63,459 bases of DNA, filler included, from Rozella allomycis CSF55 (GCA_000442015.1; 6 parts of 6 records of this genome joined end to end with filler, not necessarily neighbours in it), one strand, 5' to 3'; positions 8,633-35,864 are shown, numbered from the whole stretch's first letter. The notes: generated from the sequence alone by a model not told the origin. A program made the numbers and translations.

Positions 8633-10562
8633 ATGGGACTTTTTGGCCTAGGAGTCGGAGTAGTTTCAACGCTTTATGCCGTTTCATATGAAGTATCTGT
8701 TTTTTGGATTAGCGTAATGTAATTAAATGTTCAAAAAAGAAAATATATGAATTGACTGTGCATCCAATGATAAGAAGAAGACATTGCTATAATATTCTAG
8801 CGACTGCAGAAACATACGAACAATGGAAACAAGCTGCTATGGAATTGGACATGTATTAAATTTGAATTGCCTGAATAGGTTGGAAGGTAATGATGTCTGG
8901 AAAAGGGACCCCTCAAGCAATGATTTTGATGTTGACATGATTGCCAGCAGATTGGATCAAATGAGGGTAGCGAGATCATCAAACGATATACCCGCTATGT
9001 TGTTTCTGATAAAGACAAGTAATTATCGTAGCCTATTAAGATTTAGATTTGTCCAGGAATATTGGAGATATTGCGAATCCTAAACTCTTTTCATTTACAA
9101 ACGTTGGCACCAAACATATAATTGACGAGTACATTAATGAAGTCATAACGCATCTAAAAATTCTATCGGAATATGACCGAGGTGTTTACAGGGACATTAC
9201 ATTAAGAATTGACTTTTTTAAAGCGTTACGAAGAGCATTTGGCAATACTGCTTTACTTCTTTCTGGTGGAGGGACGCTAGGAATGAAACATGTGGGGGTT
9301 ATTAAAAGTCTTCATGAACAAAAATTGCTGCCCAGAATTATTTCAGGTTCTTCATCTGGATCAATTGTGGCCGCAATAATATCAACACGCACTGATAAAG
9401 AGCTTGATACTTTATTGGATACACTTGAAAATTTCAACTTTGATGCTTTCAGTGAACCAAGCTTACCAGACGACGCCTGCTTTATTGCTCATATTCTTAA
9501 AAAAGTTGAAAGATTTATTAAAAGCAGTATTACACGTTTGAATATTAAATAGGCGTCCTATTCGATGTGGAATCTTTGAGAACTTGCATGAGATTGAACT
9601 TGGGAGATATGACCTTTCTTGAAGCTTATAATCGAACCAGGCGAATCTTAAATATCACTGTTTCTTCTTCGACTATATTTGAGATGCCAAGGCTCTTAAA
9701 CTATCTGACTGCACCTAATGTAGTTGTATGGAGTGCTGTTGTCACATCTTGCTCTATTCCAAACTTTTTCAAGGCTTCTCCTTTAATAGCAAAGGATAAA
9801 AATGGTGCTTTTGTTTCATGGAATCCAAGTGGTAATACATAATAGTGAAAAATATAGGGGACACATGGATTGATGGTTCGTTTGAAAAGTATGAAATTTC
9901 AGAAATTATGATAGTGATTTACCGATGAGAAAGTTGAGCGAAGTATTTAATGTTAACCATTTCATAGTATCTCAAACCAATCCCCATGTTTATCTGTTCA
10001 TACCTAATGAACTCAAAAGCAGTTGGAAGTCTTTCTTTATTGACCGACTACTTTTCTTGTGCAATTCAGAAATACAATATAGGTGTTCTCAGCTAATTGA
10101 TCTAGGAATATTCCCATCAATAATGCACAGAGTCCGGTCTATTTTGAGTCAACGATACATGGGCGACATTACAATTGTCCCTCTAATGTCCATAGTGGAC
10201 CTCTTCCGCTTGTTTTCCAACCCCACCAAAGAAAGAATATTGGACTATGTGCGCAAGGGGGAATTGGCTACTTGGCCAAGTATGAAATAATATGTTGTGG
10301 AATAGAACTTTCGATTATTCAAAACCACTGCAGGGTTGAGACTACTCTGGATGAAATCCTTTACAATCTTCGCTGTATAATGATTGATCAGCTGAACATT
10401 AACAAATCTATCGGCCAGATTGAAATGGAGGAACATGAGATGGAGGGAAACGCATCCAAAGACAATATGGCTACCCCTGTTGTTTCCAGGTTCAAGAGAA
10501 AGACCACTATTTCTTCATTGTCGTATTCTTCATTAACCGATCTGCATAACCGTTACCAATAA
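8633..10562 (+). CDS. Patatin-domain triacylglycerol lipase (TGL3/4/5, SDP1-like), multi-exon
   Basis: N-terminal ATAETYEQWKQAAMELD, LLLSGGGTLG, nucleophile GSSSG, MTFLEAYNRTRRILNITV, LLNYLTAPNV, WIDGS and FNVNHFIVSQTNPH. Exons are joined by 26-28-nt introns. Confidence 0.93.
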
Positions 10563-10574
10563 ATCAATGGATTT

Positions 10575-11372
10575 TCATTCTTTGAACAGCCTTTTCACTT
10601 TATGAAGTATGCACAGTTCATGTATAATATGTTGTGGAGTTGATTTCAGTTCTTTTACACTAGGCGCATTTAGTAGAACTGACACCATACTCTTATTTTT
10701 TAGAGTGAATAGATCGTTAAACAGATTGACATCAATTTTCTTCAATTGGGTGGCGACTATATTTAGCTTTGCAAAATGTGACCACAAATCAGAAACTTTA
10801 TATAATGCGCGCAACAACTTGACGTTACAAGGTATGCAATCCAAATCAATACTCATACACATATAATANCTCAATTGGGTGGCAACTATATTTAGCTTTG
10901 CAAAACGCAGCCCCAAATCAGAAACTTTATGTAATGCCCGCAAGAACCTAAAGTGACTAGATATGCAATCCAAATCAATACTCATGCCCATATAATATAT
11001 CTGTGCATCCAATTCCCTCTGCATAAGGTCCCATTCAATTCCATCCCCTGTATTTTCAATTGCCAATTGTGTAACTATTTGCTTCAAATACTGGTAAAAC
11101 CCAATTTCATCATTTTCGTAAAATGCGCGTTTCTTTGATTGACAAGTGTCCTGAATATTTATAGTATCAATTAGATTGGATTCTAAATCGATCAGGGCGA
11201 GTGTATATGAAGAAGTGATGTCAGTGGGTGAGAGCCATGAAAACCACTTGTCGAGTGAGAAACCGGGTATGAAGAGGTTAGTGTGTGGTTTAAGGCATTT
11301 GTAGAGATCAATTAGATATAAATATTGGTTGTTTGGTAGCGGTATAGTGTATAGCCATTGTGAAATATTCAT
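10575..11372 (-). CDS. Hypothetical protein; the internal duplication at the n join is probably an artefact
   Basis: 265-aa ORF. The YYM.MSIDLDCI...FAKLNIVATQL block appears twice, either side of the n at 10869. Confidence 0.5.
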   Translation of the reverse strand: MNISQWLYTIPLPNNQYLYLIDLYKCLKPHTNLFIPGFSLDKWFSWLSPTDITSSYTLALIDLESNLIDTINIQDTCQSKKRAFYENDEIGFYQYLKQIVTQLAIENTGDGIEWDLMQRELDAQIYYMGMSIDLDCISSHFRFLRALHKVSDLGLRFAKLNIVATQLXYYMCMSIDLDCIPCNVKLLRALYKVSDLWSHFAKLNIVATQLKKIDVNLFNDLFTLKNKSMVSVLLNAPSVKELKSTPQHIIHELCILHKVKRLFKE

Positions 11373-11460
11373 GATTTGTTTGTTTATGCATCGAATTGAG
11401 TTTGCTTATGTATTAAATTGAGATTAACATAAAAATTAGAAATATAATTTATTGGTCTGT

Positions 11461-14400
11461 TCAATTCAATAAATCAATGTCCTTTCTGAACGAAAAGTCT
11501 TCAAAATGTAGTTCATCGTTGCTCGACATGACAGATTCAGTGATAACCGGCGCTTGGTCTGTAAACTCTTGATCAAAATACCTATTTCCCATTTAAACAT
11601 ATTTTACCTATATGAAACACACATAACAACTTACCTAGTATCGATATCGTTTCTCAAATCTGGCACAAACGGCGGCCTGACCAACTTTTTAAACACCATG
11701 TTGAAATCCACTCCATGAAAGAAATCATGCCTTCTAATAGCACAGCTGGCATCACTCCCACATCCCAGCCTGTATTGTGGTTCTCTAACAAGAAACTGTT
11801 CAATGATAGATTTCGTTTGGGTGTTTAAATGATTCGGATAGTGTATGGGTTCTCTTAAAATCTTTTCGTATAGTTTGTGCCTGTTGGGGGAATAAAAGGG
11901 ATGAAACCCGCATGTCATTTCAAAGATGATTATGCCGAATGCCCACCAGTCTGCTGCGAATCCCTGTGTTTCAAACAGGATTACTTCTGGTGCGAAATAT
12001 TCGAGGGTGCCTGAGAATGATTTTGTTGTTTCGTCGTATCGTTTGCAGAGCCCGAAATCTGTTATCCGAATGTGGCCGTCTTTATCTAGTAGAATGTTTT
12101 CTAGTTTGAGATCCCTTGTTGGAACAAGATGATATTTCTACCTTACAATATGAAGAACAATTCGTTACCTGTAAACATAACCTTTGCCATGAAGACATTC
12201 AAGAGCCAGTAGCATTTCAGCAGCATAAAATTGAGCTCTTTCAAAAGAAAATTTACCGAAACGTTGTAAATGAAAAAACAATTCACCACCGTTGACATAT
12301 TCCATTACTAAGTACAATTTGTCTCTAGTTTGAAATGCATAATGCAGACTAACAAGAAAGGGATGCATGATGCCTCTTAGCAATTTGTTTTCATTTACGC
12401 TTGTTTCTGGTGCGTATTTCTTTTTTAAAACTTTTATAGCGAATAGTTGGTCAGTTGATTTCTTGTTTGATAAATAAACTTTGCCATATTGACCCTGGCC
12501 AAGAACTTTGATTATTTCAAAATCGCTAATAGAAATAACAGAAGCGTTGGCAGTTGAATTTGATTTAAAAGACATTGAATTTGATGTTGAATTTGATGTG
12601 CACGCAAGGGATAGTGATTCAATCCAATCTGCGCATTCTTGTTTATTGGATGCTTTCAGATGTATTTTGAGATTATTGTTGTAAATCAGAGTGAATGAAT
12701 GAAGAGATTTATTTCTTTCATCACAAAATATTTTTATTTGAGATAATGGAAACTTTAATTGTTCTTTTGAACTCTTCATGTTGAAATAACAATTCTCAAT
12801 AAAACACCAATAATTAACCCAATTGTTAAGAGATAAAGATAACAACCAACCTTCTTTAATGACGAGATCAATTTTGACGATTTTTTCAGTAAAACTTGGA
12901 TTTGAAATTTTATTTAAAGCTTTTAACATTAAATCAATTTCAGTTCCAAAGAATCCAGCTAGTTTATTAACAGTTGAATTGAAAGCAACACCATCATTCT
13001 CTTTATCATTTGATTGTTCAATTCTTTTAAATAGAAATAATTGTTTATCTCTCCATTTCAACATTCTTTCATACAAAATTTCATCATCTTTTAATTCTTT
13101 TTCATGTCCATTATTCACTTCAAATATTTTATAATTTTCTGAATCATTAATGTTTTTATTTAAACAAATTTTATCTACAATTTCTTTTGATCTTTCTGTT
13201 GTTGAAATTATCATCTTTTTATATGAATGATCAACAAAGTTTATTCTAACAATCAATTTACCAGATTCCAATTTAATCTAAATTTATTTTTTAATTAATC
13301 TTTTTTTACTTTGTTTGATTTCTTTTCAATTTCTCTTCTTATTTTGTCAACTTCATTTTCATCTTTCACTCCAAAGAAATTTACTAATTTTCCTGTTCTA
13401 TTTTTAGAATTCTCTTCAGGGGTACAATTCTCACTCAAACTCAAATCAGCGTTATTCAAACTAATTAAAGTTAAACTAGATGTTAAATTGTCACTCTCTT
13501 TCACATTCAAATTCTTAATAACATTTCTTATTTGATCAACTTCATCTTCATTCTTTTCAACTCCAAAGAAATCAGCAATTTTAAGAGTTCTCTTTGTCAT
13601 TTTATTCATTAAATTATTTTCATTCACAATTTGCTCTTCTCGTGGAATTCTTTCATCTTCAAGAAGAAATTCATATATTTTATCACTCTTCATCAAATCT
13701 ATTCTCTGCAATGGAATTTCATTCTTTTCTAAACAAATAAATTCTTTAAATTAAATAAAATCTTTCTTTACCTTGATTTAATATCAAATTTAATTTAAAA
13801 TGTTCTTCTTCATCCCTCTTCCCTTCTCTGTCTAAAATAGTTCGAATAATCTCCAAACAACAAGTTCTTTCTGTTATTGATATATTAAATAATTTCTTCA
13901 TAAATATTAACTTTACATACACTGATTCTCTCTCTTCTTCATTCTTATTCTGCCTCTTCTTGTACACAAAGATTTCTTTAACATTCCATGGATTAAATGG
14001 AGTTTCTCCCATCATTATTTCTTCAAGCTCATTAAATTTATTTATTCTATAAAGAGAATAGTTTAGCATTTCACTACTACTTTCACTACTCTTCTCCCCT
14101 TGTTCGCTAATTCTTCCTCCTCTTTCATTACCCTCCAAAGTCTTGCTATATATCATTTCAATAGCTTTCAACGCACTAGTAAACACACTAAACCTCATAT
14201 CCACCATCTCCCCACTCTCCTCAACTCTTATCCTAAACCTACACGAATTCTCAACATCCTCAACCAGCAGCCTAAACCCCTTCCCATCCCTCCCAACAAT
14301 GTCCCCAAAAGTCATCGCATATCCACACCCCCTCTCATCACAATCACAATCATACACATAAACTCTAAACCTCTCACATCCTGCCGCCAGCCCCTCACCC

Positions 14401-14888
14401 GCTTTCTCAATAATCACAGTATCAATAAACTCTCCAACAGTCATTTCAGGCGGCCCATAAACTGTGCAGAATCCAACACGCTCAAAATAGAAACTTATTT
14501 CAATCGACTCTTGCCGCGCTTCAGAATGGTTAAACGATTGCGAGCGCATAAATTTAATGGTTTGGTTGTCGCTCACATCCAATTCAGTCGTTGGATTCGA
14601 TAGGTATGGGCGCATATACGCAGAAAACTGTTGCTCCGTATCAATGTCATCCGCAATGAAATCATGAGAGATATCGTTGTTTATGTTGTCTTCACAAAGT
14701 TCCACGTTTCTTTGTTTCATGGGATTGCAATAATTCTTATCGTCTTCTTGCATTACTTGGATGCTTTCAACACTCTGCAAGGTACTCTCCGTGCCGTTCA
14801 CAATCATCTTGAATTCCAAAGTTAAAGGTTTTGGCGGCGTAATTTGAAATAATTCACTGGCGCTTTTAGAAAGTTTGTCAGATATCAT
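11461..14888 (-). CDS. AGC-family (Akt/SGK/S6K-like) Ser/Thr kinase with several N-terminal RA/ubiquitin-like domains and a PH domain
   Basis: Kinase motifs LGQGQYGKV, FAIKVLKK, YRDLKLEN, DFG, SFSGTLEYFAPE, PPFVP, DTRYFDQEFT and hydrophobic motif FEDFSF. PH domain KEGWL...LKASNKQECADWIESL. RA-like LIVRINFVDHSYKKMII...YKIFEV...EKELKDDE. Introns at 13744-13771, 13278-13309, 12115-12168 and 11582-11634. Confidence 0.9.
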
Positions 14889-14975
14889 CTTTATGTTTCC
14901 GGCTGATCTGATTGAGATGGATATCGGAAATTATTGGTACGGACATTTATAAAATTTGAAGATGTTTCAAGCTAT

Positions 14976-16742: not shown

Positions 16743-16887
16743 GGCGCCAATTCCGGGTCAAAGAAATTTCTCAAATAAAAATGCCAAAGACTATCAAACT
16801 TACTTCATTTATTGCAGTGAAAACAACCTCCTGGAATATTAATTTTTCTTTGTTTCATATTTTACATGGTAACGTTTGAAATTGTCA

Positions 16888-18141
16888 ATGTTTTGTTCTT
16901 GCTTCAAAGTAAATAGGGCGCGGATTAAGCCCTCAAATGATCCATCAGGAAAGAAAATAGCAAGTCGAGAACTAGATACAGAAAATCAAAATTTGCTACC
17001 GGCCATTAGTCCTCAAAATGATCAGGTTCAAGTAGTTCAAGTGGAAATTCCTAGATTAAAGAAAAGCGCTACTCTTCGTTCATTAAATAATCCAGAAAAT
17101 AATAATTTAAATGCAATGGATCAGCGGAATATGCCAGATAATGGAAATCAAGCAGAGCATTCGCTTACACAAGTCCCAAGGCGAGGGAGTGCGCTATCTG
17201 ATGCTCCACCTGTATTTGTTGATATCGATGAAATTATACAAAGACTTTTAGAAATTAAGAATCAGCCAAAGCTGCAGAGGTACATGGTTGTTAAAACAAA
17301 TGAAATTTTATCAATATGCTCAATCGCAAGGGAAATATTATTGGCAGAGCCTTCCTTATTACAAATTGAACCACCCGTTAAAATTGTAGGAGACATTCAC
17401 GGCCAATACCTTGACTTGCTAAATATATTTGATCAATGCGGTCATCCGTCTGTTCAGCCATACCTGTTTCTTGGAGACTATGTGGATAGGGGGAAACAAA
17501 GTTTAGAGACTATGATATTGCTTCTTTGCTACAAAATCAAATATCCCAACACATTCCATATCTTGAGAGGAAATCATGAGTGTGCTAGCATTAACAGGGT
17601 TTACGGCTTCTTTGAAGAATGTAAAAGACGTGTCAATATAAAATGCTGGAAAAGCTTTACTGATGTATTTAATGTAATTCCAGTCGCTGCTATTGTTGCT
17701 GAAAAGATTTTCTGTGTGCATGGTGGTCTTTCACCTGGCCTGTATTCCATGAAGCAAATTGAAATGATTAAACGACCCACAGATGTTCCTGACTTTGGCC
17801 TGCTTAATGATCTTTTATGGGCTGATCCGAATGAAAACGTTGCAGAATGGGAAGAAAACGATAGAGGTGTGTCCTACTTGTTTGGAAAATCCATAATTGA
17901 TCAGTTTCTACAAAAACATGATCTAGATCTCATATGTAGAGCTCACACTGTAGTTGAAGATGGATATGAGTTCTTTAATGATAGGACACTAGTCACGGTG
18001 TTTTCAGCTCCTAATTATTGCGGAGAATTCGAAAATTGTGGCGCGATTCTGCAAGTTTCTCAAAATTTACTTTGCTCCTTTCAAATAATTAAAAATTCAA
18101 GTCCTTTATACAAAATATCAAGTGAAGATATCAATAAATAA
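16888..18141 (+). CDS. PP1-family Ser/Thr phosphatase, PPZ/PPQ-like, with an N-terminal low-complexity extension
   Basis: [40 protein letters not shown] and [16 protein letters not shown]. Intronless; first in-frame ATG at 16888. Confidence 0.92.
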
Positions 18142-18653: not shown

Positions 18654-21121
18654 TTAAAAAAACATCGAAGGTAATCCCTTGGACTTTCGATTATTCGATA
18701 TTCTTCTTGAAAAGGTGGAAAAATAATTCCCGATGAAAAAGTCAGCGTGATAACATATTTCTTGTTCCAGAAAGGGGAGCAAATCATCTGTTTTCATGTC
18801 CATCGGTAACAATTCTGGGTTGTTTTGAATTCCTTTCATTATTACATCACTGTTAAAAACATTCAACGTGGTGTTTAGGTAAGATTGCGAAAATTCTTCG
18901 GGCTTGTTGGTGGATACATAAATTGACTTCACTGGTCCGAACTTTTGAATTTCTTTTTGAATCCTTAGCGAAATAACATTATTTGAAGGGTAGCACTTGT
19001 CGATGGAGAATCCACGAAGCCAAGTTTTCAGTAAACCTGGTTCCTTTTTTATGCGTTCAGCCAAGTGCGAACAATAGTTTTCAAAATCCCCCCGCCGAGC
19101 GTGAATACATATGAATGGGCTTTTGCCAAAACTTTCTTGTATAATATTCGAGACTACATTTCTATTTCATCTAACTAGCCTTTTTTACTTGAGTGAATGT
19201 TTCAAATTCCATAATCCCGAAACAGCTTTAGAATGTTGGCGATTCTTTGTTCTTGTATCAAACTTGTAAAATCCCATGAATAAAGTGTTAAATGATAAAA
19301 TATCATCATCGCAAGACCCATACAAGCGTTTTATATCTTTTTCATAGCGATTGGAGCCTTGTATTCTGTATTTAACAGGAGAATCTAAACCATGTTTTTC
19401 AAGTAAAACATTATTAGGCTCAAGAAAGTTAGTTAGCCCTTCCAATACAATCATTCTTCGTGGTGGAGGCAATTGTAGGTCAACAAATTCATCAAAGTAT
19501 GTGAAATTGATGTATTGAGACAGTTTGTCTTCATTTATGTCAAACAAAGAATTTAGAGAGAACCAACTTTGATTTGTGGATTGCACTGGGGGCAAAACTA
19601 AAGTACGCTTCAAAATGTGGGCATAGGCTATAGCATCTTCATACGCTCGAAGCTGATTATTAAACCCGAGTTGAGGTTGAAAAATGATATACTTTTCATC
19701 TGAAACTGGTTCTTCTCTTTCTAATGACCCAAATAGATCCAGAACACAATGATTATTTCCGTCTACAGTATTTATACCATAGAATCTTTTGAATAACTCT
19801 TTTGTATTTCTATTTGTATGATATAGCTGTTCTAAGGCACCCAGGCCAGTTTCGAATAGATGAACTACAGACGGAACTTTTCTATGATAAATGTCAAACA
19901 CGTCAAGATCTTTAATGGGTTTGTTCAAATCATTCCAGAATTTTCTTGACTTCAGGAAACTATCGTCTTCATGAAGAGAAACTGTATAGACCCATAGTTT
20001 TTTCTTTGTCAAGGTGAATGAAGAGGTTTTTCCGGCGGCACCCTTCGATCCTGTATGTTCGCCTTTTTGAATTGCTTTTGATAACTTACCTGGTTCACGG
20101 TGGTTAGTTGAAAATGATAATTGATCAGGGAAATTTGGGTAAATCATGAACCATCCTCTGGCATACGATAAGTCGATTAGATGCCTATTGTAATATACGT
20201 CTATTTCTACCTCTTCCAGGATCTTCTCCATGTATTACTATGAGCATTTGGTGCAATTATTCTAGAGCCAAATTTTCGAACTGCTACTTCACTCGTTCTC
20301 CAGTCATAGTACTCCTTAAATTCACGCCACACTTTAGGAAAGTATACAGCGCCCCAGCTGCAAGGAATCTGGAACATAAATAAAGTACTATTTTGGACGA
20401 TATCTGATGGTATCCATTTTAAAGGAGGATGCACTATTTCATTCCACCTTGGAGTGTATAGAGAAATACCCATCATTTTTGATAAGACATCCGCATTTTC
20501 ACGAAAAACATACCTATTAATATTCATTAGAATAAAACCAAAATAATATTTGGACACTTCGATATCATCTTCCAGGAAAATGGCATATTCATCATCCGAT
20601 GCAGGAGACCATGCCGACATTATCATCTAGTAAAACATCATCCGAAATATTACTTTTTCCAATCCTAATCTATCCGTTCGTATATTTCTGATCGTATCTC
20701 CATGTGGCCATTTGAATGAATCGACTAAGGCTATGACCTCTTCACCAGCATCGCCATCAACATTGATTTGAATATCGACTTTCACTCCAAAGTATAGAGC
20801 GTTTGTTAATGATGTAAGTAGTCTCTGTAAAGATGCAAATCTTCTCCAACCGAAAACCTGTACTACGAATGAAGGATAAGGTCTTGATAGACTTTCTTCA
20901 GTAATGGAATTAACCACTTTTTTATCCCAATTTTTATACAAATGATCATAAAAAACGTCTTTATCAGGATGGGAGACCCAGTTATCAACTACAGCGGTTG
21001 CATTGAAGTCCATGACATTGGGTCGGTATAATACAGGCAAAAGAGATATAAATATCGCGCCAAATATGACGATGGACTTGTAGGATATTCTATAGGCTGA
21101 GAATTTAAACTTTGGATGCAT
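18654..21121 (-). CDS. Type II membrane glycosyltransferase fusion: GT-A-like domain plus O-fucosyltransferase-like domain
   Basis: N-terminal TM segment. GT-A motifs RFASLQRLLTSL, IFLEDDIEVS, GISLYTPR, QIPCSWGAVYFP and NHREPGEH. O-FucT motifs GFNNQL..LKRTLVLP, CIHARRGDF, IYVST and EQEICYHADFFIGNYFSTFS. Four 26-27-nt introns join these into one frame. Confidence 0.8.
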
Positions 21122-21348: not shown

Positions 21349-24300
21349 ATGAGATTAAAATATTCCAAGTCAATCTTTAATGCACAAAACAATATGAATA
21401 AAAGAGTTGAAAGCATAACTTGGTCACCAAACGGAAAAAAGATGGCCGTTTGTTTAGCTGACAGAACAGTATCTCTCTTCGACTCTAATGGGGAGAGGAA
21501 AGATAAATTTGGCACTAAATCTATAGATTCAGTAAGTATTTTACTTTAATAATATAGAATTCAAACTACAACGTGGTAGATTCCGTATTTTCACCTGATT
21601 CATCAAAGTTGGCAATTGCACAATCGGACAAGTCTGTGTTCATATACAAAGTTGGTACTGAATGGGGAGATAAGAAAAGTATATGCAACAAATTCACCAT
21701 TGATTCCATGATTACAAGTATTGTTTGGCCGGAATCCGATTCCAATAACATATATTTCTCCAGCATGGATGGTAAAGTCAGGCAAGGTTCAATCAAGTCA
21801 AACAAAATTAACATAATATTTGAATCGTCTAATTTTTCTTGTATATCTTTAGCTGTGTCACAAAATTTTCTCTATTCCGGCCATGTAGATGGAACCATTT
21901 ATCGCCACACTATCGGGGTAGATCAAAGTGATAAAAAAGTAAAACATTGGTTATATTGAGACAGGTCTTTGCCAACTATAAAGGTTATCCATGTCAAATT
22001 TCGGCACACGATTCTGGTATTATTGTCGCTAGTGATCTTCAGCTAACATTTTTCTCAAAAGAAGGTAAATGTAAATTAGCACCATTCCAGGTTCTATTGC
22101 TCAAAAAATTGACTTCTCACAAGAAGAAAATTTGAGAGAGATAACAACAATGACACTCAGTCCTAACCAGCAAGCTCTAATTGTAGGTTGCTTCAATACG
22201 TAATTGGTATGTATTGCTTCTATAGATTCATATCGTTGGAGTATAACTCGTCAAAGCGCATGTGGAGTGAAACCTCTAGAAAGGTAGTGGAAAATTTCTA
22301 TGGTCCTTCGTCAATGGCTTTTAAACCAGATGGTTCAAAGCTATATATAGGAAACATATGCGGAGAGCTTTCTGTGTTTGAATGTTGCCTGAAAAAAGTT
22401 TTGTATAAGAACTCTTTTGAAATGGCTTTCACTATGCCAAGTCAAGTCGTTTTGAAGAGGCTTTCAGATAATACCTCAGTTGTGGTTCAATCAAATTCAG
22501 GTTTTGACATTCAACAAATTGATGTTTTCCACGAAAATTATGTGTTTGCCAAAACAAAAGGAACCATAATTTGTGGAGACATTAATTCTCTGGCTATCAG
22601 TGAAGTAAAAATTGTAATTAATGCTTTAAAGGTTCCATGGTATAATGAAGGCGGTGAAAAATGTATCTTTGACACACCTCCCTTGTGCCTTATTTACAAA
22701 GCCGGTGAATTGTTTATAATAGAGTATGGCCAAAACGAAATCTTAGTTATATGCAGAACAGAATATGTGCAGCCTCATTTAATAAGGTACTATGCTTAGG
22801 ATTTCCAAATAAAGTGCCCGTTGTGACGAAAAAAGCGGCGCCAAGTATCTTGCGTTTCTGGTGGATCCACAGAATATCCATGTTCAAGATATCAATAGAA
22901 ATAACATAATCTCAACAATTAGCCATAACTATAAAATTGACTGGCTTGAGTTATCTGGAAAGACAAATTTGTTAGCCTTTCGAGACAAAAAGAAACAACT
23001 TCATATTTTTAATATGCACGAAACTGACAAGGTTCTCTTGCTTCATTATGTGTCATACGTACAAGTACAATGATGTAGCAATTATGATTTATAGTGGATT
23101 CCTGACAGTGATGTATTGGTTGCCGAAGCCCCAGGATTCTTGTACATATGGTATAATCCCCTCTATCCTGATCAATTTACGAAGATTGCAATTAAAGGGC
23201 AAGTTCAAGGAATAGAGCGAAATGACGGACGAACCAGTGTGATTATTGATGAAGGAGTAAACAACACCATTTTTATCTTGGATGAAAACTTGATTAACTT
23301 TAATTCATTGCTTAAAGAAAAGGAATACGAAAAGTAATTCTTACTGTAAAATGAGACAGGGCCATTATGTTGATCGAGAGTATGGAAAGCGGAAAGAGTG
23401 ATACTGCTCCATTGTGGAATAGTTTATGTGAGCATGCTATGGACGATGGTCGATACAAAGTGGCAGAAAGGTTTCAAATATATGTTACATTTACGTAGAT
23501 GTTACTCTGCTACTGGAAATGTTGTCAAAGCATCCTATCTTCATGAAGTGAATAAACTCGAACAGGTATGATATTCAATCAGTTAAGATCAAGCAAAGCT
23601 TGGTCCAGGCAAAAATGTGTGTCTTGAATAAACAATACCAAGTTGCAGAGAATTTGTATCTTGAAAATGGGAAACTGAATGAGGCCATGGAAATGTACCA
23701 AGAATTGCATAAATGGGATTCCGCTATTAAAGTGGCTCAATTAAGGAACCATCCAGACATTAAAGAGTTAAAGCAAGGATACTTGACGTGGCTCTTGGAA
23801 TCTGGTCAAGAAGATAAAGCTGCAGAGTACAAAGAAACAGAAGGCGACATTTTGACAGCGATTGAATACTATTTAAAAGGAGGTAAATTAACAATACGTG
23901 TTAAATTTATAAGGATTTCCCGGAAAAGCCGCAAGTTTGCTGAACAAGAATCAAGATAAAATAATTGATCCCATTTTACGTGAAAGCGTTGCCAAATCAC
24001 TCTATTCTTTTGAAATGTTTGAAAAGGTACACTTTAAGTTTTCATTTAATAGGCTGGTGAATTCTATGAGAATTTGGGTCAAGATTTAAAAGCATTGGAG
24101 TCTTTTAAAAAGGGAAACTGTTATAGAAAAGCAATTGACATTTCGAGGAAAATTGACCCATCGCTAGTTAAAGAGTTGGAAAAGGTATAATCAATGGACT
24201 CTTTTTCATAAAGAATTGGGGCGATTATTTGTTTAACCAGAAGCAGTATGATTCATCAATAAACCACTATTTGGAAGCGGGATTAGAATTAAAAGCAGCT

Positions 24301-26978
24301 GAAGCATCAATTAAAGCTAAACAAGTATTAATTTTCATAAAGATTACAATAGTGGAAAAAGGCGAGTGATGTAGTAAATAACATGACCATTGAAGATGCA
24401 ATTCCATTGCATTTAGAATTGGCAAATAAATACTTTGAATTAAATGATACCGAAAGTGCTAAATGGCATTTCATGCAAAGTGGAGAGATAAAGATTGCAA
24501 TTGAGAAATTTCTTAAATCCAAGAAATGGCAAGACGCTTACGAGCTGGTTTTGAATAACAAAGATGAAAAAGATTTCTTGGATCTTATAGATGAACAAGC
24601 CAAAAAACTAGAATTTTCAAGTCCGAAAGAAGCCGAAGAAATATATTGTGTTATTAATGAGCCAGACAAGGCTATTTTGATGTACAAGAATAAGAAAGAT
24701 TATGTGAATTTGCTGGGATTAGTATCAAAGTATAGAAAGCAGCATTTGAATGAAACTTTGAATTTTATTGCTAAAGAGTTTGAATCAAGTGGTGATTATT
24801 CAACTGCCGAGATGTACTACTTGAAGGCGAATGACTGGAAATCTGCAATATCTATGCATACTTCTAACAATAATTTTGAAGATGCATATAGAGTAAGGAT
24901 ATTAATGGGATGTGAATAGATTGCAAAAGAATTTGGAAATGAATCAGCATTGAAACAAATAGCTTATATTTGGGCAAGATCGCTCGGAGGAGAATCAGGG
25001 GTTAATTTATTGCAAAAGTTGAATAAGTTGGAGCAAGTTATTGATTTCGCTGTGGATAATGGAAACTTTGAATTTGCATTAATTTTAAGCAAATTTTCAA
25101 AGTTTAAAGAAAAGGAAGTTGATGTTATTTATAAGCAAGCGATATTCTTGGAAGATGAAGGAAAGTATGAAGCAGCAGAAGCATTATTTGTGAAAGCTGG
25201 AAAACCAAGAGAGGCTATTTTGATGTACGTTCATAACCAAGATTGGGATTCAGCCTTGCGAGTTGCCGAACAATTTGATGTGTCCAGTTTGCAAGATGTA
25301 CTTTTGGGACTAGCGAAAGAATTATTTGATAAAAAGGAATACAAAAAGGCAGAGTCTTTGATTCTAAGAGCGCATCTTCCAGAAATTGCGATTAAACTTT
25401 ATCGAGAAAACCAAATGTGGCAGCAAGCGATAAAGTTTGCACTTGAGAATTTGCCAGCCAAAGTTCCAGAGTTAAAAGCAGAGTTTGAAGTTCATTCAGC
25501 AAAACTGAATAGCAATCAATTTCAAGTCAGTCAACTGCAAGCAGCGAAACAATTGGAAATTAATCAAAAATATTCTGCTGCAGTTGATTCTTATTTGATG
25601 GTTTTAAATGATAAATATTCGACACCGCAAGATATTGAAACTGCTATTAATTCTGCATTGGATGTTGTTTATAAACATTTACCTGATCAAATTATTGAAA
25701 CAGCTAAATTAGCTTGTGATTATTACATTTCCAAATCCAAATATTTAGAAGCCGGCGATGTTTACGCAGAAGCTGGATTATTTAAAGAAGCAATTGATGC
25801 ATTTATCAATGGCAATCTGTTTGATGAAGCGAGAAATTTGGCTAAAGAATCAGCGACTGAATTTGTTTCTTATGTAGAAAATTGTTATAAAAATTATTTG
25901 AAACAAAATAAAAATGCTAAAGATCTTTCATCGATTGATGTGAACGCGGCAGTTGAGTTATGCGCTAGGAATGGCGATTGGGAAAAATGTTTTGAATTGG
26001 CTAAAAATTCAGTAAGAAATATTAAACATTTTTAAGCAAAGAATTCAGAAACATTTGAGCATTATTTGAAACAGAGAGCCACAGAGTTAATTAGAGATGA
26101 ACAACTTGAAAATGTTTGTGATTTATTCTTGAAACATTCTTGCCCCTTGAAGAAAGATTTTCATGCCATTTATGATCAACTTTGTTTGTTAATTTTTAAA
26201 AATGGAGAAAAAGAATTAAAAAAGAAATTATTTCAAGTTTTATTCAATTTGGTATTTTCGTTAATTTTAGAAATAATAAGATTGGAAATCTTTCGTTTGA
26301 ATTGGCGCCAAAATCTTTACTTAAGTATCTTCTGGTTTTGTATTTAAAAGACAAAGTTGAATCATTTGAATTAAAAGGATTGAAGCCCCTTGTGGCTAAA
26401 ACAAATTTAAGTCTTCTTCGCTACACTGACATTTTGCCTTGCGATGAAGCTTTCCTTGCTGCTGGAAATGCCTGCAAAGTAATACACATTGTTAATCCAT
26501 TAATAGAATTCTGGCAAAACCAACATGGCGTTTGTCTGTTTCAATCGATTCCTTGATATCCAAGACGCCATTGAAGATGGAGCAAACGACATTGCATCTG
26601 GCCAAGACTTTCAATACTCGGACATTCCAAATGTATTCAAATTGCCAAAATTTAGTTCCATCGACGTAAAAACACAATCAACAATTTATTTAGAAAAATT
26701 TAACAGAGGAAATAAGAGATTGGGTGTTGAATACCTCACTTTCTAATGAGCCACTTAGTCCAGATTTAAGAAAATGCCAAAATTGCAGCAGCGACATTCT
26801 TATTTCATCTTTGAAATGCTGCAACTGTGAATTCGTTAATGAAACATGCATCGTCACTGGATACCCTGTCATTGATGCTATTGAATGCGATGCGTGTCAT
26901 AGAAAGGCCAACAAGGATGATTGGAACACTTACACGAAAACTTTTCATGAATGTCCATGGTGCAAGAAAATGATATAA
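21349..26978 (+). CDS. IFT172: Intraflagellar transport protein 172 (IFT-B), about 20 micro-introns
   Basis: MRLKY start, WSPNGKKMAV, GERKDKFGTK, FSPDSSKLAIAQSD, GTEWGDKKSICNKF, HNYKIDWLELS, AMEMYQELHKWD, WARSLGG, KPREAILMYVHNQDW, SLLRYTDILPCD, AFVCFNRFLD and C-terminal CIVTGYPV..ANKDDWN..CPWC. Confidence 0.97.
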
Positions 26979-27075: not shown

Positions 27076-30000
27076 ATGCAACAAGTGTTTGCAAAGCTTC
27101 GAAATTTAGAGATTTCGAACCAGAAAAAGGTAATATACAACGAAATAGCATTATAGACATCTGCTATTCTTTCAGCGATTGAGCAGGTAACAGTTTAGAT
27201 TAAGGTTGAAAAGACTATAAAGAGCAAAGGTATGGAACCACAGCCAGTTGCATATTTTGCGTCTATTGTAAGAATTTTATAATGTTTTTAAAAGATGGTT
27301 CTTTTGCAGCAGGATGATGCCATGGATGATGCCGAGACTGCTTATGGTGCAGTGTATTTGCTTTCTCTAGTGATTCCAGAGTAAATTCAATTCTAAATTT
27401 TGAAAAGATGTTCTAATGGATTAATAAGATCCAAATGCAAAGAATTGTGGCAGTTGTTTGTAAAGTTAATGGACCAACATAACCATCACACTGCACTGAT
27501 TAAGACTGTAAAAACGTTGTTACAATTTAAAAGATTATGACAAGTGTTGAGAGTATTTTAAGAGTGCAGGAAAGCAACGCCTGGGGCAAGAACAGTGTTG
27601 CAAGCGAGATGTTTTTGAAGATGGTGTCGATGTGTATGGAAACGAGGCCAAAGTTGCGCAAAAAGGCTGTCGAGGTTGTTGAGCATGTGATCAAGAATCC
27701 AGCGCCGCCTTTGACTGTGCATCCTGTTCTGCCGTATTTCTATTCGTTTGTTGAAAAGATATTTTGCGGGATCAACAAGGCGAATGTAGAACAAACATTG
27801 CATAATCTGTGCTGGATTGGCGTGTGTGTGGGAGTGTTTGGGGAGCGCGAGATGATGGGGTTGTTGGATATGGCGTTTAAGTTTAATGGGCAGGTGAACC
27901 ATGCGTCGTTTTCGCTGTTGCTGTATCAGAATGTTTTGGGTGTTTTTGAAAAAAGTTTTTATGGGGAGGAATTTGAGTGTAAGATGTTGCAGAGGATGCT
28001 TGAATGCAGACCGAATGTGAGTGATAGCGTTGTAGTGCCGTTTTGGTTGAAGACTGTGCAGTCGTTTGCAGAGAATTGCGGTTGTTTTGATAAAGCGTTT
28101 GTGCCAATGTTTGAATCCTTGTTGAATTATTTTGAAACTGATGAGATTGAAACTGTTAAGCAGAGTGGAGAGATTGTGTGTTTGATGATTAGAAGAATGA
28201 ATAATGAGCAGTTTGATAAGATTAGAGATTTTATTCTTGGAAATATTCAAAGTCTTTTTACTTGGAAGTATCAAAGTGCGCATGAAGTGTTTCTGTTTAT
28301 TGTTGATGAATGTACTAGAAAGATTAATAGAGAGGAATCGCATTGTCTTGTTAGTTTGTTGGAATTGTTTATTCAGTTGCATGATGATAATGGATTTAGT
28401 TTTAAAAAGACATTGGAAGATACATTGAAGAGTTTTGTCAAGTGCATGGGGATTGAATTGTTTGTTCGTGTTGCTCCATTGAATTTGAAGCCTGGAGAGT
28501 CACAACCGAGAGCCTGGTTGTTGTCAATCTTTAAAGATAATTTAGCAAATGAAAGGTTGATGTATTTTAATGATAATCTTTTACCGTTGGCTGATGATTT
28601 GAATAAATTTTCGATAGAATTGAAGAAACAAGGGAAAGAAATGGATTCGAAAGTGTATAAAACAGTTTCAATTCAAGTTTGGTCATTGTTTGAATCATTT
28701 TGTAATGAATGTTGCGATATTAGTGAATCTTTTCCAGTGATTGCTAAAACGTTGGGAAAAGAGTTGAATGAACAAATTTATTTGAGGGATTTTATTTATA
28801 ATGGATTGATTTGTTTGTTGAAGCAAGAGAAATGTAAAATTGAATTGAAGAAATTTTCTAAAAACTTTTTACCCTTGTTGTTTAATATTGCAATGACAGA
28901 AAATAATCAAACTTTGTTGGAATGTATTAAACATTATTTATCTATTTGTGAGAATGAATTAATTAATCAATATTTGAAGATTATGGTTAAGAAAGTTGTT
29001 TCAGTTGAGAATGAGAAGGAACAGGGGATGATTATGGATTTGATATTAACGATTGTTCCATTTTGTGATCAAGAAGGATCAACAATTTTATACAAAGTAG
29101 CAATGAATTTTATAAACAAGAATGAATCATTTGATTTAATAAAGAAAAAGAGTTATAGAATATTGATTGGATTGATTGGTAAAATTCCTGAAAGCAACAA
29201 GGATGATTTAATATTTAAAATATTGAAATCAGATAATGTTTCATCTGGAGCGAAAAAGTTTAGAATGAATCTATTTTTAGAAATGGCGCAGAATTTGATG
29301 AAAGAAGAAGATTTAAAACATTTTCCAACAATTCTAACTGAATGCATGTTGGGTGTTAAAGAAGTTAATGAAAAAACAAGACAAATTTCATTTCAAGTCA
29401 TTGTTGCAATGGGAAATCTAATTAAAGAAAACAAATGGATTCCAATGAGTGAATTCATTAAAATGATCTTGGCTGGTCTTGGTGGTGAAACTCCTTTTAT
29501 GATTAGCGCTTCTATTTTATCTCTTTCTAGAGTTTTTTATGAATTTCATGGTAATCTATTTCTGAAATTTCTTAAATAGATCTAGTAGAAATTGAAATTG
29601 TTAAAAATACTTTAGAAATGATCTTTTGTCTTGGTGGTGCAAAAAATAAAGAAATTAATAGATCTCTTCTTTCTTTCATCAAAGTTTGCATTGTTTCTTT
29701 TCCAAAAGATTTAATTGAAGAAAATTTAAAACCAATTTTGGAAATTTTAGAAAATTTATTAAAAGATCAAAAATTAAAAGTTAAACATTTATTTGAAAGA
29801 CTTTTAAGATATTTCTCTTTTGAAAAATTAATAGAAAATCTTTCTGAAGAAGCTCAAAAAGTTTTAATTAACGTCAAGAAAGCCAAAGAAAGAAGAAGAA
29901 AGAATTCTTCCAAACAAAAAGATGAAATTGAAAATGAAATTGAAGATTCAGATCAAGATTTACCTGAAATGTTAAACAAAATGAATGTTAAAAATTCAAA

Positions 30001-30615: not shown

Positions 30616-33600
30616 TTATCCAAAGAATTTATCATATAACTTTAGAAAGATACCAAACACTTTATTCTCCTCTTCGTTTCTTTCCTGATAAATGGATTTT
30701 CTGGATGTCCAAATCGCAATGATCAAACATTTAATAGGCGTGCTCAGAAATATTCCCTCGGCAATAGAGATAAAGTATGCAGAGACCCAGCTGGTGCCTT
30801 GTCCTGATCCAACAACGTACTTGAGACCGCTTATCAGAGTCACATAGGTCATTAGCAAACCGCCAAAGATAACTAGAAACCAAGTAAAATATCGAACCCA
30901 GAATGGCAGGATGGGAATCGTGTAGCTTCTGAACTCTGTTGTTAGCTGTGTTTTTTGAGCTTCTTCTTCAATCTTTTTCGCTTCAGTAATTGACTGCCAG
31001 CACATTTTCAGTTTTTGCCATTTCGTTGGCTCGATTTTGTTTACGGAAAGTTTCGATCCTAGAATGTTGACTGATGATTTCCATAAATGAGCAAAACTTG
31101 GGTATGGAAAACTTCTGCTGAACAGAAACGTTACTATTGTTGTGCCAGGCATTGTAAGTAAACCTTGATTTAATTGAAGAATTTTATTTTACTTGTTATG
31201 TAACCAACGTATAGATTTTGCCAGAAAGATCTACTTACACCATCATCAGGAGCAAAAAACAGTGCTCCAGTCATCTTAAATAATATATTACAACTTTTAT
31301 TACCATTGAGCTAATTAAACCAAGAAAGCAAACGGAAACTCTTTCGGTTCTTGTAAACAAACTACCCCTTGGAAAGGCAAAGATGGAAGCCCATAAATGC
31401 TTTGATAAACACTTCAATATTATCTTACCTCATTTTGAAGTGTAAATGTGAAAACACCTGGAAGTCTTTCTTTTAATTTCAAATCTGTATCTGTAGTCTT
31501 TTCAGACACTAACCATTAACTAAAACCATCATACTTACGTTCAAATTCATCTTCTTTCTGATGGTCAATCCATTTGTCACATTTAAACTTGTAAACATCT
31601 CCTGTAGTGCAATTCATTATTTCAATGTACTCAACAAACCAATCAGCGTGAAAACCAGAATTGTCGTGTCTCAAGCCAATTCTACTAATATCTCCAATAT
31701 CAATATAATTCAAACTAAAAGAATCGATTTGATTTCTTTCAAATTCATTTCTAAACAAGGACCCTTTCAAATAATGTTTATCAACTTTTCCTTTCTCACC
31801 CTGAAATGAAATGTAAACTTTGGCATCTGTTCCAGCCTTTTTAACATCACCAGTCTTTATTCTAATCAAATAAATGGTAGTAAACAATGCTTTGGTTTTA
31901 CTTGCTCTTGTTTTAGCTGCATCAGCTTTATCTGCTCTATATGCCCAAAACGAGAGTAAAATGTAAACTAAATATGTCGCGCCGAAAACGTAGCCCAAAA
32001 GTGGATCTGTTTGCAGATTTAATAATTGTTCTGCATCTTTAATAAAATCAATCTGGTTAATTGGAACATAAAAGTCTAGTGGATTTCCAATATCAATTCC
32101 AAAGTATGTCAAATGAGAACAACAACAAACAGTCGTATTGTCAGTTGACAACAAGGGCATAAATTTACATCCATCACTTGACCATTTCTGAAGCCCTTCA
32201 TTATAATATCTACATGTTCTCAAATCTATTTATTCAAATCTGTTTCTATTTACCTATTGTTGTCGTTCCATTATTAAACGTTGTATTACGGCCTTTAGGA
32301 TTAGTAAACGGAAGCGTTATTAAAATGCAAGTGTTTCCTGTAGTGTCATTAACAGCGATTTCGTTTCCACCAGGCTGGCTAAGAGAAAAGGACAAGACAG
32401 TCCCAGACATACTTTATTATCAACTTTAATTTTATTTACTTTGCTGAACTTGGTGAATATGAAAATGGATTTGTTGTCATCACAATCAATTTCGCTTCAA
32501 ACTCTACATTAGATCCTCCTCCAGTTATAAGGCTAGTATCCAGGTTCCCAATCCCTCCTGTTCCAGAACTAGTAAAATTTCCATTAAAAGTCGTTTCATC
32601 ATCTATATTCATATCAAATTATTATCATTACGAACTTGTGCTGCTATAGTAATCGACGATGAAACAACCTGAATTTTATCACCACCAACAACTTGATTAA
32701 CCAACAATCCACTCGCAATATTTCCAACCGAATTCACAATCGAACTCAAAGTCGCTGAATTAGAAGCACTTGAACTGTCGCTCTGTGAATTATTAGACGT
32801 CGCTGCCCCCAAAATATTATCAAACGCATTCAAAAATGTCGCTCCAGTCGATGGCTCCACTCCATTGGACTTTACATTATCACTCAAAGACTTTAAAAAT
32901 GATGCTGCACTCGCTTGTGCTTCTGGACTGATTTGATCAGAACTTGACGTGACTTCTTTAATCAAGGAAACTGACTGCTGAACTGCTGCACTGGAAGCAA
33001 CACTCGCGTCATTTGAAGCAACAATTAAATCTATAATCTGTCCACGCAAAGCACCCGTATCGGAATTCTGTGATGGCGATGCAGTATTCAAAATTGATGT
33101 TAAAACTGACGCAGTTTGCATAACTTGATCAGACTTTCCTTGTTTCGCTAATGAAGCTAAATCAGAGTTTATTAAAGTTGACGCTGCTGCAAGAGCTGCC
33201 GCTGAATCAGCTTCTGCAAATGATTTAACAGTCGCATTTAATGTAACACTAGAAAAGGCACCCAATGAATCATAAATATAAACACTTAAAAATATCGTAA
33301 AATTATTTTGACTGTTTCCAGCTGAAAGTAGCGCAGATAGTGACGAATTAGTAGTTGGTGATTGAATCAATGGGACAAACGGGTCAGTAGCACTCTTCTT
33401 TGATAAAAACAGATACGATAATGGTGAATCAGAATCATACCATCCATTGCAAGAAATAGTGTAAGTTGTATTTAAATCAAATCCGGTTTGTGGATCAACT
33501 TGACAAGAACCTAATGTTGGCGGTCCATTCACAGAAAATGTAATTTCAGAAAACCCTTGTTCATTAGACGCTCCAACAACATCCAACCTCAATTTATACG

Positions 33601-35864
33601 TACTATATGGCGCCAAAGTATTTGGATTAATAGCTAAATTTCTCTTATTGTTTCCGGTAGGTGATATCAACAGATCTGTTAAATTCAAAGTAGCATTTGA
33701 ACTCACCAACGACATGGACCAAGTGTAAGTGAAGGTAGTAGCATATGGCAACGATGCAGATCCCATAAACGTATTCATTAAAGAAGGATTAAGTTTAGCA
33801 ACATCAGGAGCTTTTATAGACACGTCAGGTACACTTCCAGATTGAATTTGTAGAATAAGAGATGTTGAACCAGTTCTTTGAGATGGATTCTTGAGAGCAG
33901 AAAACGATATTAAATAATTTCCAGGAGAATACACATTGGCTGGAAATTGTAAGTAAGGAGTATTGGTTGATGAGTTAAACAGACTTGGGCAAACGGCTGT
34001 ATCTGTTAAATTCAAACAAGACCACGTAAAAACAAACGGTACATTATCTTGACTTGTTGAATTGGTATTTTTAGATATGCAACTGGTACATGTAGCACAT
34101 GATTGACAATCAAAACAAACAAGAGAACAAGGGTCATCTGGATCAAGAGTGGATGATCTTGCATCGATAGTCATAGGAACAGCAGAAGAAGCCAATCTTG
34201 AATTTCCATCTCTCAATCTAACAATGATTGGCGATGCATTTAATGTAACAGTAACATTTGCACTTCCATTAATTGTTCCATCAGGATGATTCATGACAAG
34301 AGTTGAAGTAAAAGTTATCAATCCAACATTCAACGTTCTTAAAGTTGATCTTGATATTTTTATAAACTGACCATTGAATGTTAGAGAATTTGTATTTGAC
34401 TGAGTTGGGCCAGAAATATTCCATGTATAATTAAATGATGTTGCTGTTGGACAATATAATCTCAAATCTGAAACAATTGATGCTGAAAGTGATATATCTT
34501 GAGATCTTGTAAATGTACTCTCTCCCGTCACAACGTTCGCTGTTAACACTGGTGACCTGCATATACCTTTTAATTAATCCATTAATAATGATTTACCATT
34601 GATAAATGAACCAGATAATCCACGATAAAATGTACCTCTAGCAGAATATGATAATCCAGTCGCTATCTTTATATCATCAATCACAGCAACCATAAACTGA
34701 GAATTATCAAATGTGAAAACATTTGATGAAGCAGCTAAAATTGTCAAAGTAAAATTAGTTCCATCATTAGACCAATAACCCTGGTAATCTGATCCCAATT
34801 GCGTTGAAAATGAAAACAATGAATCCACCAGAGTTTTCGAATAAAGAGCACCGCCAGATGTTATTCCAACGTCAGTTGGAGCTGAGAATTGAATAGTTAA
34901 AGTATCACCAACACCGACAACGAAATCTCTGTTAGGATTGGATGCAGTTAGAGAAACAATCAATGGACTTTGTGACACTAAATTTATCAGAATAAAATTA
35001 ATTACGTGCTCCATTAACTTTAGGCCTTGGCAGAGAAATGAAACCAACGCTAGAGTCAATCCAAGCGCATCTAAATGAAGTTGTTGAAATTGCTTGCGTT
35101 AAAAAATCATCCACAGTTATTTGAAGCCAAGTAGAATTAACCCAAACTCCATTGTACGAACTTCCCAATATCTGATTGCAGCTCAATTTATCATCAATTC
35201 CTGCCTTATTCAAATTGCTTCCATCAGAAACACTATCAGAAAATACAATGTCTATCGTTTGAATCTTCAAGTCAGTGTTAGGAGTTAATGAAAATGATAA
35301 AACATAAGCTTGCGAATTCGCATAATATGAAAAATTAGTAGAATGTTCAAATAATCTTTGTATTCCACTCACATTTTGAAATAGCTGCACAGAGACATTT
35401 GGATTGACTAATTGAATATTATTTTGAGATACAACTGGCGACGAAATAGGAATCCACAATCTCTGAAATCTCGTAAAATAGATTCCTGAATAATCTCTTC
35501 CAATTAAGAAGTTCTTGAATTTAAATATATTGTCTATTTGATCTTTTGATAAGATTTGAAGATCAACTAAATTGCTATTATTTTCAAATTGAACTAGAAA
35601 TCCACTAACTTTGTCCATTGTCTTGTTTAATGTTGGAACTTTGGTGCTCAAGTCAGATAAAGCTGAAATTTCAACAATTCTAGTAAAGCTTAATGAATCA
35701 AGAATGGTAAAGTTTCCTATTAATGTCGGATTTGAACATAAACGGAAGTTTGAATTTGTATACGTTGGATTGAATGCAACTGAAAATGTTGTTGTGGAAT
35801 TGAAATAGAAACTAACTTTTGAATTGAATATAAATGCAAAATAATCAACATTATCATTTGTAGT
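30616..35864 (-). CDS. Polycystin-1-like protein (REJ - GPS - TM - PLAT/LH2 - several TMs); 5' end lost in the gap
   Basis: REJ-like DARSSTLDPD, FTWSC, NGPPTLGSCQVDPQTG..ISCNGWYDSDSPLSY. GPS CRYYNEGLQKWSSDGC..CCCSHLTYFG. PLAT YLIRIKTGDVKKAGTDAKV..FERNQIDSF..RHDNSG..W. Then EHLWASIF..FTRTERVSVC and further TMs. Confidence 0.88.

Follow-up and report, generated by a model that had tools for sequence, protein, structure and literature searches.

Stwintrons, which are found in filamentous fungi, are nested: the inner of the two introns lies within a splice signal of its outer partner and has to be removed first. In animals, recursive splicing proceeds through ratchet points, and the cases described there split introns of many kilobases (bioRxiv 10.1101/006163; PMC6110456). 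It has also been shown experimentally in two fungi, in each of which a zero-length exon divides a much smaller intron. The 375-nt intron of Cryptococcus neoformans BOT1 is split into pieces of 210 and 165 nt (bioRxiv 10.1101/224170), and a 336-nt intron of Schizosaccharomyces pombe SPNCRNA.445 undergoes the same kind of splicing (bioRxiv 10.1101/226894). Both were revealed by spliceosome profiling, with one or two such cases per genome (bioRxiv 10.1101/224170, 10.1101/226894). The original prediction made for the locus discussed here, that recursive splicing at AG/GT ratchet points is described mainly in very long animal introns, therefore has to be widened to take in these two fungal examples. 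At the other end of the size range are genomes with ultra-short introns, given as about 25 nt in Paramecium, 27 nt in dicyemids and 22–27 nt in myxobolid myxozoans (PMC13644364; PMC6543705; PMC5014332). For Rozella allomycis the reported value is about 30 nt (PMC6349667). The idea that intron length may itself aid the pairing of splice sites has been voiced for ciliates (PMC5014332).

This article deals with a 63,459-nt stretch of Rozella allomycis CSF55 DNA, hereafter the window, in which one kinase gene carries two introns of double length, each made of two abutting units. As at the ratchet points of Drosophila and vertebrates, the intron contains a 3′ splice site set directly against a 5′ one, and a donor would be rebuilt, here as CAG/GTAGAA (the slash marks the junction). 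In contrast to those ratchet points, the intron measures 54 nt, each step would remove 27 nt, and the inner sites are candidates. With BOT1 and SPNCRNA.445 the locus shares an intron that is longer than the species norm and split by a zero-length exon. Their pieces, however, measure 165–210 nt and were found experimentally, whereas the pieces described here are about as small as splicing allows, correspond to the modal intron of the window, and occur as two pairs in a single gene. The likeness to stwintrons is that two introns are proposed to leave one interruption in succession. Unlike stwintron partners, the units stand next to each other, both have a GT and an AG that are intact, neither depends on the other, and in the 54-nt intron no inner intron interrupts an outer splice signal. 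Finally, the very narrow length distribution, with its peak near 27 nt, and the weak motifs recall the ultra-short-intron genomes, but double-length introns made of two units go unmentioned in the available portions of those accounts (PMC13644364; PMC6543705; PMC5014332; PMC6349667). A literature search returned no report of such abutting pairs or of recursive splicing in tiny-intron organisms; supplementary files lay outside that search, and absence is unproven. The doubles would be a miniature variant of the zero-length-exon recursive splicing already shown in two fungi.

The host kinase gene

The gene lies on the minus strand at 11461–14888, as delimited by our own gene finder, with a predicted start and a stop codon at 11463–11461, and it encodes an RA-PH-AGC (Akt-like) protein kinase. 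Pfam recognizes RA_2, PH and Pkinase domains in the ORF at 12171–13277, Pkinase again at 11634–12113, and Pkinase_C at 11464–11580. The 394-aa upstream ORF of the region has no Pfam match. The kinase (12171–14930, minus strand) has the layout RA + PH + AGC-kinase, and its top full-length matches come from aphelids and chytrids, whose RA-PH-kinases are 27–34% identical to it across 98–99% of the query. Apart from the two double introns, the gene contains two ordinary ones, of 28 nt (13744–13771, minus strand) and 32 nt (13278–13309, minus strand). It is otherwise intact, with every motif present.

The 54-nt double intron

On the minus strand, positions 12168 to 12115 form a 54-nt GT..AG interruption of this gene. 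It stands in phase 2, splitting the arginine codon (AG/G) of YRD, between an upstream exon ending in ..TTTACAG and a downstream one beginning with GGATCTC... Its first letters are GTAACG, its last ACAAG, and its middle reads ..GTAAG/GTAGAA... The central AG/GT junction, between 12142 and 12141, constitutes a zero-length exon and candidate ratchet point, with a first unit of 27 nt on one side (12142–12168, GTAACG..GTAAG) and a second unit of 27 nt on the other (12115–12141, GTAGAA..ACAAG).

Once the 54 nt are spliced out, the protein reads ..GKGYVYR/DLKLENILLD... The predicted restoration of the catalytic-loop YRDLKLEN is thus borne out by the reading frame, and it is equally upheld by the continuity of the Pkinase profile and by the protein P0121. 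In the 263-position Pfam profile, the upstream ORF stops at position 121 and the downstream ORF begins at 123; the missing position is accounted for by the arginine codon that the intron splits. P0121 (335 aa, NCBI/UniRef) is an independently annotated gene model from another assembly, and carries the peptide uninterrupted at the intron site. Compared with the window it shows a single gap of 18 residues, corresponding to 54 nt. It is 100% identical to the query over the best local alignment, and against the window it has 2 mismatches over residues 1–296 and 3 over residues 295–335. Retention of either 27-nt half would bring in a stop codon at once (AGG TAA or AGG TAG), a point that had been predicted and can be read directly from the sequence. 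DNA contigs from two runs (X1 record 3; X5 records 11 and 12) cover the site without a gap, which means that the 54 nt are present in the genome and are no assembly slip. Among the differences listed for the X1 contig, none falls inside 12115–12168. The interruption thus combines GT..AG ends with a conserved protein that is continuous after its removal and, by these sequence features, it is an intron of the spliceosomal GT-AG type.

The strength of the individual sites was scored with splice-site matrices trained on 35 unambiguous ORF-bridging introns from the window. In the first unit (12142–12168), the donor scores 5.44, ranking 13 against the 35 training introns, and the acceptor 1.85, below all 35 training acceptors. 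In the second unit (12115–12141), the donor scores 5.38, the 98th percentile among all GT dinucleotides of the window, and the acceptor 2.33, rank 34 against the training set. The GC contents of the two units, 0.30 and 0.33, respectively, are intron-like.

Homologues from metagenomes give a view of the same position in other organisms. The site is read straight through in seven of the eight metagenome homologues inspected, and in the eighth, L077, a 33-nt GT..AG intron of its own occupies the identical codon position. Another metagenome contig, L073, likewise carries a single 33-nt intron there. The L077 intron (2966–2998) interrupts TAC AG/../G GAC, an exact match to the codon position of the double intron. 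The source of L077 and L073 is an unrelated environmental eukaryote with a GC content of 0.54 and several introns of about 33 nt, and its kinase is 39% identical in the main alignment. Across the 80 loci of the metagenome search, the best was 48% identical, and none was near enough for the intron sequence itself to be compared.

A second double intron in the same gene

Another double intron lies 480 nt downstream of the first in the same kinase gene, and it too is split at AG/GTA. It spans 53 nt (11582–11634, minus strand, 27 + 26 nt) in phase 2 (ACT AG/G TAT), between ..DIDTR and YFDQEFT.., and reads GTAAGT..ATAG/GTAAAA..AATAG. Both double introns share the AG/G phase. The first unit (11608–11634, 27 nt, GTAAGT..ATAG) has a donor score of 5.33 and an acceptor score of 4.06; for the second (11582–11607, 26 nt, GTAAAA..AATAG) the values are 5.22 and 3.63. 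Across this site P0121 reads ..NDIDTRYFDQAFT.., and the downstream exon matches positions 9–44 of the Pkinase_C profile from its first residue onward. A 1-nt insertion variant exists at 11626, inside the first unit, where it would make a unit of 28 nt; it occurs in an X1 contig, at a depth of 160 out of 873, and in X9 as well.

The exon that follows (11559–11581, minus strand) itself opens with GTATTT, with ..ACAG following after 23 nt, which gives a third consecutive AG/GTA junction. Because the conserved YFDQEFT motif is encoded here, this segment has to stay in the mRNA, and its 23 nt fall below the length of every one of the 69 short introns in the census described below. To judge by this sequence, an AG/GTA junction is insufficient on its own as a splicing signal.

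The intron population of the window

A census of introns was made over the 63 kb with our own simple gene finder, a crude tool whose output consists of predictions only. It contains 92 predicted introns, of which 69 measure 24–32 nt and 23 at least 33 nt. The lengths peak at 26–28 nt, and the 54-nt intron splits exactly, as had been proposed, into two GT..AG units (12168–12142 and 12141–12115) of this typical local length. The short introns are distributed as follows: one of 24 nt, 18 of 26 nt, 14 of 27 nt, 20 of 28 nt, 10 of 29 nt, four of 30 nt, and one each of 31 and 32 nt. A large majority (62/69) therefore fall within 26–29 nt, and the predicted introns show the narrow mode below 30 nt that characterizes an ultra-short-intron regime. 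Their splice motifs are weak, with GTA as donor and (A/T)AG as acceptor. The mean GC content of the short introns is 0.24, compared with 0.23–0.33 for the units of the double introns and 0.42 for the exon between the doubles. The letters that follow an ordinary short intron are GT in 7 of the 69 cases and GTA in only one.

Among the 23 predictions of at least 33 nt, eight collapse to an intron of 24–32 nt plus in-frame codons, two are the doubles, and 13, of 36–120 nt, are unverified. Five of these 13 run antisense to an RRP12-like gene, and three flank a phosphatase ORF that the window's own database protein, P0241 (417 aa), covers without them. One lies beyond the natural C-terminus of a Phe-tRNA synthetase and is hence contradicted; the remaining four are at 27187–27222, 46787–46709, 44999–44935, and 44176–44070. 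By this crude census, the two doubles are the only verified introns longer than 32 nt in the window.

A different arrangement is seen in an O-fucosyltransferase-like gene (20185–20238, minus strand), where two 26-nt GT..AG units (20238–20213 and 20210–20185) lie 2 nt apart. Either unit alone joins both ORFs in frame, and removal of both together would not. They could be alternative or competing mini-introns.

Other features of the window

The phosphatase ORF mentioned above (16873–18138) is of the PPZ type, and its best named matches, at 66–68% identity, are from chytrids and other fungi. To our knowledge, PPZ-type phosphatases are specific to fungi. The tiny introns and a REJ domain might suggest a dicyemid or a myxozoan, but this reading was dropped in view of the phosphatase and of the kinase's aphelid and chytrid matches; the gene content looks like that of an early-diverging zoosporic fungus, for which a rozellid is a lead, given the introns of about 30 nt in Rozella allomycis (PMC6349667). 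In this otherwise fungal-looking genome, a polycystin-1-like gene with REJ, GPS, and PLAT domains occupies 31519–34573 on the minus strand, and it is adjoined by an intraflagellar-transport-like gene at about 21349–26978 on the plus strand. At 55754–60526 (minus strand), an open frame of 1591 aa with an endonuclease/exonuclease/phosphatase domain looks like a LINE-type retroelement, and families of repeats cluster at 38.9–43.5 kb. The window also contains single N letters flanked by near-identical direct repeats (for example 10742–10868 and 10871–10997, which are 87% alike), as well as paired runs of 44 N set 12 nt apart. Both the single-N sites and the 44-N runs resemble scaffold joins whose ends are redundant, or else stretches that were masked.

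Tandem build, chance and origin

How often such an arrangement arises by chance was estimated from 200,000 simulations of random introns with the local intron composition. A split at AG/GTA with both halves of 26–28 nt occurred in 0.25% of random 54-nt introns (0.0025) and in 0.17% of random 53-nt ones (0.0017). Under a looser test, which accepts any AG/GT and halves of 24–30 nt, the figures rise to 1.4% (0.0143) and 1.25% (0.0125), respectively. When both strands of the window were scanned with the splice-site matrices, 179 intron-like units came to light, along with just two abutting pairs, which are the two doubles. In 40 Markov-simulated windows, abutting pairs numbered 0.15 on average, with a maximum of 2, and this difference shows that the tandem build is not due to chance. 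Both pairs sit precisely where the complete pair has to be removed from the message, and all four units measure 26 or 27 nt, which is the mode of the 69 short introns. The inner donors score 5.38 (54-nt intron) and 5.22 (53-nt intron), where the training introns average 4.79 and the GT dinucleotides of the window, taken together, −0.23; the inner acceptors score 1.85 and 4.06. The tandem build is real and goes beyond chance.

A recent tandem duplication was considered as the origin of the doubles and discarded, the two halves being no more similar to each other than random intron pairs are: the score of the halves is equalled or exceeded by 77% of random pairs for the 54-nt intron and by 67% for the 53-nt one. 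A hairpin that would shorten the intron was likewise rejected, since the doubles fold no better than shuffled sequences (z = 0.29 for 54 nt and −0.18 for 53 nt). Several further candidate pairs were also set aside. In the one at 34596–34540 (30 + 27 nt), the second half has an exon-like GC content of 0.44 and stays in frame, and it was read as coding. Those at 45583–45530, 8853–8905, and 4928–4868 each consist of one real intron plus coding sequence.

How the double introns may be removed

Two-step, recursive removal is the mechanism that we moderately favor as the most likely, because each half looks like a normal intron of the preferred length. With lengths so narrow and motifs so weak, intron length itself probably helps match donor to acceptor. 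Under such a length rule, each half would be a normal substrate, and the outer donor and acceptor would stand twice too far apart; two ordinary splicing reactions, one after the other, would then be the likeliest course. If the 5′ unit were removed first, ..CAG would be joined to GTAGAA and a good donor would be rebuilt. If the 3′ unit went first, the first unit would retain its own AAG acceptor. Either order would lead to the identical mRNA, and any half-spliced RNA would carry an immediate stop codon. The AG nearest downstream of the branch is normally the one chosen. If the spliceosome used the outer donor together with a branch in the first unit, it would accordingly be expected to stop at the inner AG.

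The anatomy of the two introns is that of a recursive site. At 12142/12141, and again at 11608/11607, a 3′ splice site is followed immediately by a 5′ one, and by sequence the donor rebuilt after a first step would be ..CAG + GTAGAA in the one and ..TAG + GTAAAA in the other. The lack of support for shortening by a hairpin also counts in favor of two steps, and so does the fact that removal in two steps through a zero-length exon is an established reaction, in fungi as well. On the opposite side stand the weakness of both acceptors of the 54-nt intron (inner 1.85, outer 2.33) and the restriction of the evidence to two cases, both in one gene. The coding stretch of 23 nt after the 53-nt intron, which has to be kept despite its AG/GTA junction, likewise counts against. 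To these are added the 13 long predictions (36–120 nt), neither verified nor fully dismissed: if some of them are real, the spliceosome can handle other lengths and two steps would be unneeded. The contigs of runs X1, X5, X9 and X11 placed on 10870–14975 contain no splice joints, and X11, an RNA run, matched there over only 35 nt, at 90–95% likeness. What the sequence shows is the anatomy, the frame, the exact junctions, the local range of lengths and a design beyond chance; in vivo use of the inner sites, and the order of that use, are inferred. A stronger proposal, which we advance only tentatively, is that the length rule of about 27 nt may be so strict that longer introns must be chains of full units, in which case the doubles would be removed by obligate recursive splicing through zero-length exons, the smallest such splicing known, and would be a natural readout of the spliceosome's length rule.

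Weighing the alternatives

The double could also be a single ordinary 54-nt intron, removed in one step through its outer sites, with the inner AG/GT as an unused relic of the way the intron arose. A second intron may, for example, have been gained at the AG/GT of an existing exon–intron border, or two neighboring introns may have merged. This is possible, if clearly less probable than removal in two steps. Its final mRNA would be identical, and the annotated P0121 model is equally compatible with it. In its favor, too, the inner acceptor of the 54-nt intron scores under every training acceptor, and the metagenome homologue, with just one intron, of 33 nt, at this position, suggests that the older state may have been a single unit. 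The unverified longer predictions would likewise be in keeping with a spliceosome able to process introns above 32 nt. Inert inner sites, however, give no reason for four units of modal length, nor for two inner donors that score like real ones. A spliceosome that recognizes 69 weak-signal introns of that size would be expected to see these units as well, and the window contains no verified single intron above 32 nt.

The immediate stop produced by retaining either half, and the presence of both doubles in one signaling gene, might instead point to a regulatory device, in which the inner sites would sometimes be used to make half-spliced, stop-containing RNAs and so lower kinase output by unproductive splicing. 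We regard this as improbable: a half-spliced RNA would still contain one whole intron of the normal kind, whose removal would simply follow, and any retained phase-2 AG/GTA intron gives an immediate stop, so that this property is not special to the doubles. As for there being no real intron at all, and the 54 nt being an assembly artefact, an insertion, or a pseudogene lesion, the window is indeed a gapped scaffold whose joins have duplicated ends. The chance of this is nevertheless close to negligible in view of the gap-free DNA contigs of two runs. Elsewhere the gene is undamaged, with all its motifs; GT..AG ends bound the insert, whose GC content is 0.30–0.33 vs. 0.42 in the exon; and an independent assembly yielded the identical gene model (P0121).

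Biological meaning

If the inner sites are used, the two introns would represent recursive splicing at the smallest scale possible. Recursion would then be a general answer to a mismatch between the length of an intron and the length that the spliceosome prefers, one that extends beyond very long introns. The doubles would also offer a clean natural test of intron length as a recognition signal in tiny-intron genomes. In practical terms, such loci may be mishandled by gene finders and read aligners whose models allow a single intron per gap or set a lower limit on exon size. Even if the inner sites are unused, the pairs would still trace intron gain or merging under extreme pressure on genome size.
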